Shown: positions 48,437-54,445, numbered from the stretch's first letter. The stretch is DNA of 64,000 bases from Methylobrevis albus (GCF_015904235.1 NZ_JADZLT010000040.1:449794-513793); one strand, 5' to 3'. Numbers and translations are program-made. The notes: generated from the letters alone by a model not told the origin.

Positions 48437-49705
48437 ATGGTGGCGAAGATCGGCGCGGCGTTGATCGCGCCTTTCGAGTGGATGCTGGCGATGCGGTATC
48501 TCCGCTCGCGGCGCAAGGAGGCGTTCATCTCGGTGATCGCCGGCTTCTCCTTCGTCGGCATCATGCTTGGGGTCGCGACGCTGATCATCGTCATGGCCGT
48601 GATGAACGGCTTTCGCGGCCAGCTGCTCGAGAAGATCCTCGGCATCAACGGCCACATGGTCGTGCAGCCGATCGACACGCCGCTCACCGACTATGCCGAA
48701 GTGACCGAGCGGATCGCTGCGATCCGGGGCGTGCGCCTCGCCATGCCGTTCACCGAGGGGCAGGTGCTCGCGTCCGGGCCGTCGGGCGCCTTCGGCACCC
48801 TGGTGCGCGGTGTGATGCGCAATGATCTCGAACGCATGCCGCTGATCGCCGGCACGATCCGCCAGGGCTCCCTCGACGGCTTCGACGAGGGCGAAGGCAT
48901 CGCGATCGGCATCCGGCTCGCCCAGAATCTCGGCATCGCGGCGGGCGACCGGGTCACGCTGGTCAGCCCGAAGGGCAGCGTGACCGCGCTCGGCACCACG
49001 CCGCGGGTCAAGGCCTATGTGGTGGCGGCGATCTTCGAGATCGGCATGTCGGAATATGATTCCACCTTCGTCTTCATGCCCTTCGCCGAGGCGCAGATCT
49101 ATTTCAACACGCCGGAGGTCGCGAGCGCGATCGACGTGTTCGTCGACGATCCGGATCGGGTCGGCGAGATGCGCGACGAGGTCGGAACCGCTGCCGGCCG
49201 ACCCAACGTCATCAGCGACTGGCGCCAGCGCAACGTCACCTTCTTTGCCGCGCTGGAGGTGGAGCGGAACGTGATGTTCCTGATCCTGACGCTGATCGTG
49301 CTGGTCGCGGCGCTCAACATCGTATCGGGCATGACGATGCTGGTGAAGGACAAGGGGCATGACATCGCCATCCTGCGCACCATGGGCGCGTCGCGCGGCT
49401 CGATCCTCCGGATCTTCCTGATCACGGGGGCGAGCATCGGGGTGGTGGGGACCATCGCCGGCTTCTGCCTGGGGCTGCTCGTCTGCCTCAACATCGAATC
49501 GATCCGCCAGTTCATTTCCTGGCTCACCAGCACGGAACTCTTCTCGCCCGAACTCTATTATCTCAGCCGGTTGCCCGCGGACGTGAACGTCGGCGAGACG
49601 CTGAGCATCCTCGCCATGGCGATGGCGCTGTCCTTCCTTGCGACGCTCTACCCCGCCTGGCGCGCCGCGAAGCTCGATCCCGTCGAAGCGCTGAGGTACG
49701 AATGA
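48437..49705 (+). CDS. lolC: lipoprotein-releasing ABC transporter permease LolC/LolE
   Basis: FtsX-like permease with four transmembrane helices and a large periplasmic loop. It overlaps lolD by 4 nt. An alternative start is [11 protein letters not shown] (48482). Confidence 0.88.
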
Positions 49706-50406
49706 GCGACGCAGCCCAGCCCGCCCCCGGCGCCGTCCTCCGACTTGCCGGCGTCACCCGCGCCTATGACGAGGGCAGCGGCAAGCTGCACATTCTCACC
49801 GGTGCGGACTTCGTGCTGCAGCCTGGCGAGATCGTCGGCCTCGTGGCGCCGTCGGGCGTCGGCAAGTCGACGCTGCTGCAGATCGCCGGCCTGCTCGAGA
49901 AGCCCGACAGCGGCGACGTGCTGATCCACGGTGCCTCCTGCGGGGCGCTCGACGACACCGGGCGCACGAAGATGCGCCGGACGACGATCGGCTTCGTCTA
50001 CCAGTTCCACCACCTGCTGCCCGAGTTCACCGCGGTCGAGAACCTCGTCGTGCCGCAGATGATCAACGGGCTCGGCCGACGCGACGCGCGGCAGCGGTCG
50101 ATGGAACTGCTCTCCTATCTGAAGCTCGACCACCGCGCCGACCATCTGCCGTCGCAGCTCTCGGGCGGCGAGCGCCAGCGCGTCGCCATTGCCCGCGCCG
50201 TCGCCAACGCGCCGCGCATCCTGCTCGCCGACGAGCCGACCGGCAATCTCGACCCGAAGACGTCGCGCTACGTCTACGATGCGCTGCTGGCGCTGGTGCG
50301 CGGCACCGGCCTCGCCGCCGTGATCGCCACCCACAACATGGACCTCGCCGGCCGCATGGACCGCCGCATCACCCTGATCGACGGCAAGGTCGTCGAACTC
50401 GACTGA
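49702..50406 (+). CDS. lolD: lipoprotein-releasing ABC transporter ATP-binding protein LolD
   Basis: Walker A motif (APSGVGKST), ABC signature (LSGGERQR) and Walker B motif ([11 protein letters not shown]). Confidence 0.93.
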
Positions 50407-50431
50407 GGCGGCGCCCGACGTCGCAGTCGCC

Positions 50432-50713
50432 TCAGGCGCCGCCGACGACGACGGCGAGCATCGTCGCAAAGGCGGTGAGCGCGCCGAGGGCCGCGACATC
50501 CCGGACCATCAGCGAACGCACCAGGTGGTGCCAGAGCACGCGCGGCAGCGGCTCGACGAAATCGGCGACCATCAACGCCTTGCCGCCGCCCGAGTAGGAG
50601 GTCGGCCGGCCGGCGAGAAACCGGCGGAACCCGAAGGACCAGCGATCGCGGCGGCGCTGCGGCCGGGCGGCGACGGCGAGGGAGAAGAAGCGGACATCGG
50701 TGGTGCTCGGCAT
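50432..50713 (-). CDS. candidate unannotated small membrane protein (SOS-regulated?)
   Basis: 93-aa ORF with very high GC3 and a C-terminal hydrophobic helix (VAALGALTAFATMLAVVVGGA). A GGAG Shine-Dalgarno sequence lies 7 nt upstream of the ATG, and a LexA box lies 38 nt upstream. Confidence 0.4.
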   Translation of the reverse strand: MPSTTDVRFFSLAVAARPQRRRDRWSFGFRRFLAGRPTSYSGGGKALMVADFVEPLPRVLWHHLVRSLMVRDVAALGALTAFATMLAVVVGGA

Positions 50714-50740
50714 CGTTTTGCTCCATCAAGTTCCTTGTAT

Positions 50741-50765
50741 GTTCTCATCTGTTCTGATAATGTTC
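50741..50765. promoter_or_regulatory. LexA (SOS) box, alphaproteobacterial type GTTC-N7-GTTC
   Basis: GTTCtcatctGTTCtgataatGTTC, with a perfect GTTC-N7-GTTC at 50751..50765 and an extra half-site 6 nt upstream. It sits in a local AT-rich island between the small ORF (minus strand) and dnaE (plus strand). Confidence 0.65.
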
Positions 50766-50917
50766 CTTCTGTCAAGGGGCGTTGTGTGTCAGACGGTGCC
50801 GGGATCAGGCGCAGCCAGGGACGCGATCGGAACGGGCGGCGCCGGGGCGTCGCGGCTGTCCACAGCGCATGTCGGTGACGACGGCGCTCGTCGTTGAGTG
50901 GGAGCGGCGGGGGCGGC

Positions 50918-53900
50918 ATGGTCGACGGACCGGCGCCGCGTTTGACGATCGAGGCAGGTGGCGGCGGGATCCGGGCGCGCCGGACAGGGGAGGGTGGTTT
51001 GGCCGAGCTCGAATTCGTGCATCTTCGCGTCCACTCGGCCTACTCGCTGCTCGAGGGCGCGCTGCCGCTCGGCAAGATCGTCAATCTCGCGAAAGCCGAC
51101 CGGCAGCCGGCCGTCGCGGTGACGGACAGCGGCAACCTCTTCAGCGCGCTGGAGTTTTCCGAGAAGGCGGCGGGGGCGGGACTGCAGCCGATCATCGGCT
51201 GCGCGGTCGCCGTCGATTTCGCCGACGAGCCGGTCGATCCGCGCCGCATCAATGCCGAGCCGCCGCTGCACACGCTGTTGCTGATCGCCGCGAGCACGGC
51301 GGGCTTCGACAATCTCGTCACGCTGGTCAGCAAGTCGTTCATGGAGACCGATCCGGGCGCGCGGCCGCACGTCGCGCTGACGACGGTCGAGCAGCTGTCG
51401 GCGGGGATCATCGCGCTGACGGGCGGGGCGTCCGGGCCGCTCGACCGGGCGATCGCAGCCGGCAATCCGGCGCTGGCCGAGGCGCGGCTGGGGCGCCTGG
51501 CGGCGGTGTTCGGCGACCGGCTCTACATCGAGGTGCAGCGCCACGGCACCGAGGCGGAGCGGATGATCGAGCCGCATCTGCTCGACCTCGCCTATGGTCA
51601 CCGCCTGCCGCTGGTCGCCACCAACGAGTGCTTCTTCCCGGCCCGCGGCGACTTCGAGGCACACGATGCGCTGATCGCGATCGCCGACGGGCGCGTGCTC
51701 GCCGAGGACGACCGCCGGCGGCTGACGCCGGAGCACTACTTCAAGAGCCGCGCGGAGATGGTCGCGGCCTTCGAGGACCTGCCGGAGGCGATCGCCAACA
51801 CCGTCGAGATCGCGCGGCGCTGCGCCTTCCGGCCGAAGAAGCGCAAGCCGATCCTGCCGCGCTTTGCCGGCGGCGACGTCGACGACGTGGTCGAGGCCGA
51901 GCGCGTCGAGGCGGCGGAACTCGCGCGCCAGGCCGAGGCGGGGCTCGACGCCCGCCTCGCGGCGCACGGCCCGGCGCCCGGCTGCACGGTGGCGGACTAT
52001 CGCGAGCGGCTCGCCTTCGAGCTCGACGTCATCAGCGGCATGAAGTTTCCCGGCTACTTCCTGATCGTCGCGGACTTCATCAAGTGGTCGAAGGCGCAGG
52101 GCATTCCGGTCGGGCCGGGGCGCGGCTCGGGCGCGGGCTCGCTCGTCGCCTACTCGCTCACCATCACCGACCTCGACCCGATGCGTTTCGCGCTGCTGTT
52201 CGAGCGGTTCCTCAACCCCGAGCGCGTGTCGATGCCCGACTTCGACATCGACTTCTGCCAGGACCGGCGCGACGAGGTGATCCGCTACGTCCAGGGCAAG
52301 TACGGCCGCGAGCAGGTGGCGCAGATCATCACCTTCGGCACGCTGCAGGCGCGCGCCGTGCTGCGCGACGTCGGCCGCGTGCTGCAGATGCCCTATGGCC
52401 AGGTCGACCGTCTGTGCAAGCTGGTGCCGCAGAACCCGGCCAATCCGGTGACGCTCGCCCAGGCGATCGAGGGCGAACCGCGGCTGCAGCAGGCGCGCGA
52501 CGAGGAGGAGGTCGTCGGGCGGCTGCTCGACATGGCGCTGAAGCTCGAGGGGCTCTACCGCCATGCCTCGACGCATGCGGCGGGCATCGTGATCGGCGAC
52601 CGGCCGCTCGACCAGCTGGTGCCGCTCTACCGCGATCCGCGCTCGGACATGCCGGTCACCCAGTACAACATGAAGTGGGTGGAGAGCGCCGGGCTGGTGA
52701 AGTTCGACTTCCTCGGCCTGAAGACGCTGACCGTGCTGCAGAAGGCGCTGGAACTGATCGCGCGGCGCGGCATCACGATCGACCTCTCGGCGCTGCCGTT
52801 CGACGATCCGCCCACCTACAAGCTGCTGCAGCGCGGCGAGACCGTCGGCGTGTTCCAGCTCGAAAGCATGGGCATGCGGAAGGCGATCGCCGACATCAAG
52901 CCCGACCGCTTCGAGGACATCATCGCGCTGGTGGCGCTGTACCGGCCGGGTCCGATGGCGAACATCCCGGTCTATGGCGCGCGCAAGCACGGGCACGAGG
53001 TGCCCGACTACATCCACCCGTTGCTGGAGCCGGTGCTGAAGGAGACCTACGGCATCATCGTCTACCAGGAACAGGTGATGCAGATCGCGCAGATCCTGTC
53101 GGGCTACTCGCTCGGCGAGGCCGACATGCTGCGCCGCGCCATGGGCAAGAAGATCAAGTCGGAGATGGACGCGCAGCGGGCGCGTTTCGTCGAGGGCGCG
53201 GGGTCGTCGGGGATCGACGGGCCGCAGGCGGACGCGATCTTCGACCTGCTCGCGAAGTTCGCCGACTACGGCTTCAACAAGTCGCACGCCGCAGCCTATG
53301 CGCTCGTCGCCTACCAGACGGCCTATCTGAAGGCGAACCACCCGGTCGAGTTTCTCGCCGCGTCGATGACGCTCGACATGGCGAACACCGACAAGCTGAA
53401 CGACTTCCGCCGCGAAGCGATGCGGCTCGATATCGAGGTGATGCCGCCGTCGGTGAACCGGTCGGCGGCCGAGTTCGAGGTCGACGAGGGCAAGATCCTC
53501 TATGCGCTGGCGGCCGTGAAGGGTGTCGGGCGCGCGGCGGTGGAGCATCTCGTCGAGGTGCGCGGCGGGAAGCCGTTCCGCGACCTCGGCGATTTCGCGG
53601 CGCGGATCAACCCGAAGGCACTCAACAAGCGGATGATGGAGAGCCTCGTCGCGGCGGGCGCCTTCGACGCGATGGAGGCAAACCGCGCCCGGATGTTCCA
53701 GGGCATCGAGGCGGTGCTTGGGGCGGCGGCACACCGGACGGAGCGGGAGGCGAGCGGGCAGAACGAGCTGTTCGGCGGCGCGGCCGAGGTCGAGCCGATC
53801 CGGCTGCCGCAGGCGTCGTGGCTGCCGGAAGAGCGGCTGCAGCGCGAGCACCAGGCGATCGGCTTCTACCTCTCCGCCCATCCGCTCGACGCCTATGCGC

Positions 53901-54445
53901 CGTTGCTCGACCGGCTCAGGGTGCAGACCTGGGCGAAGTTCTCCGAGGGCGTCCGGCGCGGCGCCTCGGCCGGGCGGCTGGCGGGCACGGTGGTGTCGCG
54001 GCAGGAACGGCGCACCAAGACAGGCAACAAGATGGGCATCATCGTGCTCTCCGACCCGACCGGCCAGTACGAGGCGGTGATCTTCTCCGAAGGGCTCGGC
54101 CAGTTTCGCGACCTGCTCGAGCCCGGACGGTCGCTGATTCTCGAGGTCGGCGCCGACAACCGGCCGGAGGGGATCAGCGTGCGCATCAACAAGGTCGATC
54201 CGCTCGACGAGGCGGCCGGCAAGCTGCGCAACGGGCTTCGGGTGTTCCTGCGCAGCCGCGACCCGATCGAGAGCCTGCGCCGCCATCTCGACCCGACCGG
54301 AGAGGGCGACGTCTCGCTGATCGTGATGATGGAGGAGACCAAGCGCGAGGTGGAGGTGAAGCTCCCCGGGCGCTACCGGGTCTCGCCGCAGCTCGTCGGC
54401 GCGCTGAAGGCGATTCCCGGCGTGGTCGACGCCGAGCTCGCCTGA
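50918..54445 (+). CDS. dnaE: DNA polymerase III subunit alpha
   Basis: PHP domain (FVHLRVHSAYSLLEGA), polymerase core (GRGSGAGSLVAYSL, PDFDIDF), HhH and OB-fold domains. The start is uncertain: candidates are the ATG at 50918 or a TTG at 50999 preceded by GGGGAGGG. Confidence 0.93.
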   Translation: MVDGPAPRLTIEAGGGGIRARRTGEGGLAELEFVHLRVHSAYSLLEGALPLGKIVNLAKADRQPAVAVTDSGNLFSALEFSEKAAGAGLQPIIGCAVAVDFADEPVDPRRINAEPPLHTLLLIAASTAGFDNLVTLVSKSFMETDPGARPHVALTTVEQLSAGIIALTGGASGPLDRAIAAGNPALAEARLGRLAAVFGDRLYIEVQRHGTEAERMIEPHLLDLAYGHRLPLVATNECFFPARGDFEAHDALIAIADGRVLAEDDRRRLTPEHYFKSRAEMVAAFEDLPEAIANTVEIARRCAFRPKKRKPILPRFAGGDVDDVVEAERVEAAELARQAEAGLDARLAAHGPAPGCTVADYRERLAFELDVISGMKFPGYFLIVADFIKWSKAQGIPVGPGRGSGAGSLVAYSLTITDLDPMRFALLFERFLNPERVSMPDFDIDFCQDRRDEVIRYVQGKYGREQVAQIITFGTLQARAVLRDVGRVLQMPYGQVDRLCKLVPQNPANPVTLAQAIEGEPRLQQARDEEEVVGRLLDMALKLEGLYRHASTHAAGIVIGDRPLDQLVPLYRDPRSDMPVTQYNMKWVESAGLVKFDFLGLKTLTVLQKALELIARRGITIDLSALPFDDPPTYKLLQRGETVGVFQLESMGMRKAIADIKPDRFEDIIALVALYRPGPMANIPVYGARKHGHEVPDYIHPLLEPVLKETYGIIVYQEQVMQIAQILSGYSLGEADMLRRAMGKKIKSEMDAQRARFVEGAGSSGIDGPQADAIFDLLAKFADYGFNKSHAAAYALVAYQTAYLKANHPVEFLAASMTLDMANTDKLNDFRREAMRLDIEVMPPSVNRSAAEFEVDEGKILYALAAVKGVGRAAVEHLVEVRGGKPFRDLGDFAARINPKALNKRMMESLVAAGAFDAMEANRARMFQGIEAVLGAAAHRTEREASGQNELFGGAAEVEPIRLPQASWLPEERLQREHQAIGFYLSAHPLDAYAPLLDRLRVQTWAKFSEGVRRGASAGRLAGTVVSRQERRTKTGNKMGIIVLSDPTGQYEAVIFSEGLGQFRDLLEPGRSLILEVGADNRPEGISVRINKVDPLDEAAGKLRNGLRVFLRSRDPIESLRRHLDPTGEGDVSLIVMMEETKREVEVKLPGRYRVSPQLVGALKAIPGVVDAELA

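Follow-up and report, generated by a model that had tools for sequence, protein, structure and literature searches.

Small membrane proteins that the SOS response induces and that inhibit cell division are already known, as is the sidA-dnaE locus of Caulobacter. The SidA protein has a published length of 29 amino acids (aa) (PMC4211646). A LexA chromatin immunoprecipitation sequencing (ChIP-seq) study lists ccna_02004 as 'Cell division inhibitor SidA' next to ccna_02003, which is dnaE, with both among the SOS genes; it places the LexA boxes of sidA, GTTCACAAGATGTTC and TTTCTTGTTTTGTTC, 49 and 15 nucleotides (nt) from the coding sequence and gives the sidA transcription unit as 3557 nt (PMC12700426). 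This length matches sidA plus dnaE. The study also reports log2 inductions of 3.42 for sidA and 1.18 for dnaE after 40 min in mitomycin C, and a log2 fold change of 1.45 for dnaE in a lexA sidA double deletion (PMC12700426). The mild SOS induction of dnaE in Caulobacter fits read-through from sidA. Here, a 64,000-nt stretch of the genome of Methylobrevis albus (Pleomorphomonadaceae, Hyphomicrobiales; GCF_015904235.1, NZ_JADZLT010000040.1:449794-513793) was analyzed; it is called the window below, and positions are counted from its first letter. Between lolD and dnaE, the window holds a gene for a 93-aa protein preceded by two LexA boxes. From its sequence and by analogy with SidA, this is probably the M. 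albus version of the sidA module, a LexA-repressed promoter driving a SidA-like, tail-anchored division inhibitor of the inner membrane. The elements of the module are as follows.

50432-50713, minus strand: long-form SidA-like gene of 93 codons, recognized by its GC content at third codon positions (GC3), synonymous-only changes, and homologues.
50435-50497, minus strand: predicted C-terminal transmembrane helix VAALGALTAFATMLAVVVGGA, codons 73-93.
50721-50724, minus strand: Shine-Dalgarno sequence GGAG, 7 nt before the ATG, from reading the sequence.
50730-50744, minus strand: proximal LexA box, an exact GTTC-N7-GTTC repeat, GTTCCTTGTATGTTC on the plus strand and GAACATACAAGGAAC on the strand of the gene.
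50751-50765, minus strand: distal LexA box, also an exact GTTC-N7-GTTC repeat, GTTCTGATAATGTTC on the plus strand and GAACATTATCAGAAC on the strand of the gene.
50770-50775, minus strand: -35 hexamer TTGACA, 4 nt upstream of the distal box.

Four GTTC motifs were read in the gap between lolD and dnaE, at 50730, 50741, 50751, and 50762. The original prediction, made from the sequence alone, had reported the repeat at 50751-50765 and a further GTTC at 50741, and both are indeed present, but it counted a single box and overlooked the second perfect one at 50730-50744, which includes the fourth GTTC at 50730. On the strand of the open reading frame (ORF) the order is CCCC TTGACA GAAG GAACATTATCAGAAC AGATGA GAACATACAAGGAAC TTGAT GGAG CAAAACG ATG. 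The distal box occupies the promoter spacer immediately downstream of the -35 hexamer, 37 nt from the ATG. The proximal box ends 16 nt before the ATG, which places it near the transcription start or in the 5' leader. The two distances, 37 and 16 nt, compare with 49 and 15 nt in Caulobacter sidA, so that the proximal box stands at nearly the same distance from the start codon in both (16 nt in M. albus, 15 nt in Caulobacter). The whole arrangement lies in a local AT-rich island, with a GC fraction of 0.49 at 50700-50799 against ∼0.70 in the surroundings, as had been predicted.

The two boxes are the only exact GTTC-N7-GTTC matches in the window, and they lie 21 nt apart on the same strand of one intergenic promoter. 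Shuffled sequences contained a mean of 1.65 exact matches per 64 kilobases (kb), with at least two in 57 of 100 shuffles, and matches with one mismatch occur in the window at chance frequency. A count of two is unremarkable alone; their pairing 21 nt apart on one strand of an AT-rich promoter is unusual. The sites were also scored with a LexA weight matrix built from 32 Caulobacter boxes in the supplement of the ChIP-seq study (PMC12700426). The distal box scored 21.7 bits and the proximal box 20.0 bits, compared with a range of 14.9-26.9 bits in the training set. They rank first and second among all positions of the window on both strands, and the third-best score is 13.9 bits. Motif, score, and conservation in orthologous promoters (described below) support the two boxes as predicted members of the LexA regulon, and we infer from the sequence that LexA would bind them and that the gene would be induced.

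The GC fractions of the 93-aa ORF at the three codon positions are 0.70, 0.55, and 0.92, and the GC3 of lolD, dnaE, and lolC is 0.91-0.94. The original prediction had given the ORF at 50432-50713 on the minus strand, with GGAG 7 nt before its ATG, a GC3 of about 90%, and a single C-terminal hydrophobic helix, and all of these features were found. It had also called the ORF unannotated, which is incorrect: an identical entry exists at NCBI as 'hypothetical protein [Methylobrevis albus]', the sole match in a word-index search being the protein itself. The protein consists of an Arg-rich N-terminal part, a conserved V-x-D-F motif (VADF in M. albus, mostly VRDF in its homologues), an also conserved VRDVAAL motif, and the C-terminal hydrophobic helix, which is the most conserved region of the family. 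Residues 1-69 carry a net charge of +8. The single hydrophobic stretch spans residues ∼72-92, and the 19-residue Kyte-Doolittle mean peaks at 2.18 in this helix. AlphaFold2, run with an alignment of 13 sequences, predicted one long helix at residues 56-92, with a predicted local distance difference test score (pLDDT) of 85-96 for residues 61-90; residues 1-40 have a pLDDT below 50 and are without confident structure. The positive-inside rule points to a tail-anchored topology with the N terminus in the cytoplasm.

Two short contigs from independent read sets, the Logan assemblies SRR33394790 (L081) and SRR28892711 (L082), are collinear with the window at ∼90% DNA identity and have the same gene order. 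They probably derive from another Methylobrevis strain or species with the same arrangement, which is inverted relative to that of other relatives (see below). Over the length of the ORF, 17 bases in L081 and 15 in L082 depart from the window. All of these changes are synonymous, 31 of the 32 being in the third position of a codon, and the three sequences thus encode one and the same 93-aa protein. An identical protein despite 15-17 synonymous-only differences indicates strong purifying selection across the whole frame, the N-terminal part included. The promoter has been kept as well: TTGACA, all four GAAC half-sites, and the Shine-Dalgarno sequence are present in both contigs, the distal box is identical, and the proximal box differs in its spacer only. 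Upstream of the -35 hexamer, the contigs differ from the window at 41-42 of the 110 nt compared.

To place the gene in a wider context, 80 loci around dnaE were surveyed in relatives, one genome per species. The original prediction had proposed a tblastn comparison for co-conservation of ORF and box, and both are present in the four closest relatives (L001-L004: Methylobrevis pamukkalensis, an uncultured relative, Chthonobacter, and Pleomorphomonas; E values of 2e-14 to 4e-7). In these four, LexA boxes precede the ORF, which shares its strand with dnaE and lies a short way upstream of it. Of the 80 loci, 25 have a matrix-positive LexA box no more than 700 nt upstream of dnaE, always as GAAC-N7-GAAC on the dnaE strand. 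Inspection of 23 of these, from several orders, gave one recurring order, namely TTGAC(A/G), 3-6 nt, GAAC-N7-GAAC, a Shine-Dalgarno sequence, ATG, a small single-helix ORF, and then dnaE. Short forms of the small ORF measure 32 aa in Bauldia, whereas Parvibaculaceae have 43-47 aa, Sneathiella-like loci 35-37 aa, Hyphobacterium 30 aa, and Polycladidibacter 34 aa. In many of these short forms, the helix begins with a (K/R/Q)-D-(V/I)-A-A-L motif that corresponds in the alignment to VRDVAAL in M. albus. Pleomorphomonadaceae and their close relatives have long forms of 86-113 aa, with ∼60 additional conserved N-terminal residues and the shared core 'PTVRDFVVPAPVRLA...VRDVAALGA..LF.TML'. An exhaustive phmmer search matched seven proteins and a profile search 37, the latter all labeled hypothetical and none of them named SidA. 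In three loci of the Sneathiella type (L043, L046, and L064), a second LexA box, GTTCTCTTTTTGTT[C/T], lies in the opposite orientation ∼22-24 nt upstream of the main box; it abuts or overlaps the -35 hexamer, so that the two boxes face away from each other.

Comparison with these relatives showed that the M. albus module has been turned around. In blastn alignments, dnaE is collinear with the window in L001-L004 and lolD in L001 and L002, and the small gene is reversed in all four. The module is inverted relative to dnaE in M. albus, L081, and L082 and co-directional with it in all 25 other box-bearing loci. Every other lineage is co-directional, which makes the inversion the derived arrangement. 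Inverted repeats were sought at its ends, but only short, GC-rich, chance-like pairs came up, none of which defines a breakpoint. In every lineage, the boxes read GAAC-N7-GAAC on the coding strand of the small ORF. Their orientation and distance are thus fixed to the small ORF and flipped relative to dnaE in M. albus, which argues that the boxes belong to the small gene. The original prediction had offered control of dnaE by the box as a fallback, and the same observation disfavors it. Caulobacter sidA is co-directional with dnaE, whereas the M. albus gene is divergent from it, so that a transcription unit of the sidA-dnaE type is impossible. With the module inverted, SOS read-through into dnaE should be lost in M. 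albus.

The likeness to SidA was traced through further loci. Metagenome contigs were searched for both published sidA boxes on one strand, and 12 loci were obtained (L083-L094). In 10 of these, the boxes are followed by 15 nt that include GGAGG and then by a 29-codon ORF or a close variant. A dnaE-like frame lies downstream of the 29-aa ORF in nine of the 10, and the tenth contig (L088) ends before that point; in L092, dnaE starts 36 nt after the 29-aa ORF. The remaining two loci are a truncated contig and one that the script left unresolved. SidA (CCNA_02004 of Caulobacter crescentus) has several features in common with the M. albus protein: its gene adjoins dnaE and has two LexA boxes that read GAAC-N7-GAAC on the coding strand, and the protein has a single hydrophobic helix. 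It differs in length, 29 aa against 93 aa, the M. albus protein having a conserved extension at its N terminus, with V-x-D-F and VRDVAAL among its sequences. Reverse-complemented, the Caulobacter proximal box reads GAACAAAACAAGAAA, nearly the GAACAAAACAAGAAC that is conserved in other orders. A third box-like repeat, GAACAAAACCGGAAT or GAACGAAAAGGGAAT, lies between the two sidA boxes in L083-L094 (for example, L092 7987-8035), giving three tandem sites within 49 nt. The middle box GAACAAAACCGGAAT of these Caulobacter-type loci is similar to the proximal box in M. pamukkalensis (L001) and in L002, GAACAAAAC(G/A)GGAAT. Sequence kinship was judged against composition-preserving shuffles (n = 5000). 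SidA scored 11.3 bits against a family profile built without Caulobacter, a value reached by 3 of the 5000 shuffles, and the C terminus of the M. albus protein scored 13.1 bits against the short-form profile, reached by 2 of the 5000. These indirect links are weak but significant.

The surroundings of the module contain the following features.

49702-50406, plus strand: lolD, convergent with the small gene; its best NCBIfam match is TIGR02211 (LolD), at 241.6 bits and thus below the cutoff of 307.75 bits.
50407-50443, no strand assigned: GC-rich hairpin with a 12-bp stem, an inverted repeat with 92% complementarity, located where lolD and the small gene converge at their 3' ends.
50857-50864, plus strand: DnaA-box-like element TGTCCACA, between the SOS promoter and dnaE, kept in L081 and L082.
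50999-54445, plus strand: dnaE, the replicative DNA polymerase III alpha subunit; it matches NCBIfam NF004226 at 1488.6 bits, above the cutoff, and its Pfam domains agree.

Both flanking genes had been named in the original prediction, and the NCBIfam searches agree with these names, with LolD as the best match although it falls below the cutoff. The lolCE permease gene that adjoins lolD passes its curated NCBIfam cutoff. The start codon of dnaE is probably the TTG at 50999, which follows GGAGGG; it lies 285 nt from the small ORF and 234 nt from the boxes. The hairpin at 50407-50443 overlaps the stop codon of the small gene, and the 71-nt fold around it has an energy of -39.8 kcal/mol (z = -2.7). 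Termination in both directions is a possible role, which stays putative because the hairpin has no T-run. In L002 (2775-2820), a long perfect palindrome, TTGTCCACAGGCGGCGA...TCGCCGCCTGTGGACAA, directly follows the stop codon of the small ORF; it holds two inverted DnaA-box-like cores and so may serve as a terminator hairpin, as paired DnaA sites, or in both roles.

DnaA-box-like elements are frequent in front of dnaE. In 46 of 78 loci, the 320 nt upstream of dnaE contain a TCCACA/TGTGGA core, compared with an expectation of 0.13 per 330 nt. The forms observed are TTTTCCACA, TTATCCACA, or TGTGGATA, and some loci have two or three copies. The enrichment suggests that control of dnaE by DnaA is widespread in alphaproteobacteria. 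In the window, TGTCCACA is probably part of the control region of dnaE itself, left in place when the module was inverted.

Three other explanations of the boxes and the ORF were weighed. One is that a chance pair of motifs happens to lie beside a spurious open frame of GC-rich DNA. Chance alone should yield one or two exact GTTC-N7-GTTC matches in 64 kb, and long noncoding open frames are common in the window. The boxes are adjacent, however, and are the two best-scoring sites of the window; box, -35 hexamer, and ORF are co-conserved across genera; and the protein is identical in two relatives whose genes have 15-17 differences, all synonymous, so that a chance origin is effectively refuted. 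It is much less improbable, though still quite unlikely, that a rightward promoter overlaps the LexA boxes and that dnaE is repressed through it, either by itself or along with the small gene. A plus-strand GATAAT within the distal box (50756-50761) resembles a -10 hexamer, but it has no acceptable -35 at a spacing of 16-18 nt, and a promoter scan was empty on both strands; the conserved TTGACA is directed toward the small ORF, and the start of dnaE is 234 nt away from the boxes. Caulobacter dnaE is mildly SOS induced (log2 1.18 in mitomycin C and 1.45 when lexA and sidA are both deleted; PMC12700426), which can be explained by read-through from the sidA unit, a route that the inversion removes in M. 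albus. Across the inversion, the orientation of the boxes tracks the small ORF rather than dnaE, and the conserved DnaA-box-like element between the boxes and dnaE suggests a separate control region for the latter. A further point in favor of direct repression comes from L044, a metagenome-assembled genome of Rhodospirillaceae, in which only 79 nt separate a box of 21.6 bits (GTTCCCGTTATGTTC, 2900-2940) from dnaE downstream and no small ORF intervenes. A strong box without a small ORF implies that LexA may act directly on dnaE in some lineages. The L044 box adjoins two DnaA boxes, and L061 and L014 were grouped with this locus.

An SOS-induced toxin that perturbs the membrane, or another membrane effector, in the manner of TisB and DinQ, would slow growth by depolarization and not by binding the divisome. 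We consider this unlikely, though it is the most credible of the three. A small LexA-controlled membrane protein with a single helix has the outline of TisB and DinQ (PMC3567139), and the additional, presumably cytoplasmic part of the long form is absent from SidA, so that its activity may differ. Against this, the position and promoter layout are shared with sidA, whose product acts on FtsW, and a single-copy gene at a fixed place beside dnaE in several orders is unlike typical type I toxin loci. A search of 50300-51100 with Rfam gave no significant match and hence no known family of antisense RNAs, although this is a weak test that novel antisense RNAs would escape.

The reading preferred here, a LexA-controlled small membrane protein of the SidA type, had been put forward in the original prediction. 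It is now supported by the co-conservation of box and ORF, the presence of the module upstream of many dnaE genes, the match to the sidA-dnaE locus, and purifying selection on the protein. Several observations count against it. Neither strand gave a canonical sigma-70 pair in a consensus scan, and no -10 hexamer could be assigned by eye. The 93-aa protein and six short homologues matched no Pfam or NCBIfam model even at E = 10. SidA scored only 0.8 bits against the C termini of the long forms alone, and 2089 of the 5000 shuffles did as well, so that no direct similarity was found. Direct similarity to SidA being undetectable, the kinship rests on the intermediate short forms, the shared position, and the likeness of the promoters. 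Likeness between short hydrophobic helices is weak evidence in itself, and a protein three times the length of SidA may differ from it in target or regulation.

If the preferred reading is correct, LexA dimers in the undamaged cell would sit on both GTTC-N7-GTTC repeats, one in the promoter spacer and one around the transcription start, and would jointly block transcription of the small gene. After DNA damage, self-cleavage of LexA stimulated by RecA would free the promoter. The 93-residue protein would then be made; its N-terminal part, which is positively charged, would remain cytoplasmic, and the single helix at its C terminus would enter the inner membrane. By analogy with SidA, it may restrain the late divisome (the FtsW/FtsI/FtsN group) until repair is complete; both the inhibition of division and the divisome target are ones that we infer from this analogy. 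A broader picture is possible but distinctly tentative. The SidA-type gene, far from being peculiar to Caulobacter, may be an ancient, class-wide SOS module tied to dnaE and marked by a conserved (K/R/Q)-(D/E)-x-x-A-L motif ahead of the membrane helix, to which the extension in Pleomorphomonadaceae would add a new partner or level of control. The inversion in M. albus would then have uncoupled dnaE from SOS read-through. The extension might serve, for example, in regulated proteolysis or in contact with cytoplasmic parts of the divisome or replisome.

What is added to the known sidA-dnaE locus is a long-form variant outside any family model, the spread of the module over several alphaproteobacterial orders, and an inversion that separates it from dnaE. 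Since no Pfam or NCBIfam model covers the family, its members in other alphaproteobacteria are labeled hypothetical. Literature searches returned no description of a class-wide sidA family and SidA for Caulobacter only, although part of this may nonetheless have been published already. The finding extends a known mechanism and is not a new kind of system. It provides a rule of motif and position for finding SOS division inhibitors across the class, and the module explains LexA boxes that might otherwise be assigned to dnaE. The long form is a natural variant for asking which parts of the inhibitor contact the divisome. Similarly, M. albus, with its inverted module, and M. pamukkalensis, with a co-directional one, form a natural test of the importance of SOS read-through into dnaE.

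Among known systems other than SidA, the same logic is seen in YneA of Bacillus, SosA of Staphylococcus, DivS of Corynebacterium, and ChiZ of Mycobacterium, all of which are LexA-repressed, small, single-pass proteins that delay division upon damage. They differ from the M. albus protein in that they are unrelated in sequence, have another topology with extracellular domains (such as LysM in YneA), and show no linkage to dnaE. DidA of Caulobacter is, like the proposed M. albus protein, a small membrane division inhibitor induced by DNA damage. The original prediction had cited it as SOS induced, but DidA is SOS independent (PMC4211646); it is activated by DriD and has no LexA box (PMC7617703). 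The type I toxins TisB and DinQ of E. coli are small, hydrophobic, single-helix peptides under LexA control, which is also the outline of the M. albus gene, but they are paired with antisense RNAs, depolarize or perturb the membrane, and are unlinked to dnaE. The short homologues found upstream of dnaE in Bauldia, Parvibaculaceae, Sneathiella, Hyphobacterium, and Polycladidibacter agree with the M. albus gene in promoter order, position, and helix motif. These 'hypothetical proteins' of 32-47 aa are without the N-terminal extension and co-directional with dnaE, whereas the M. albus form is long and inverted.

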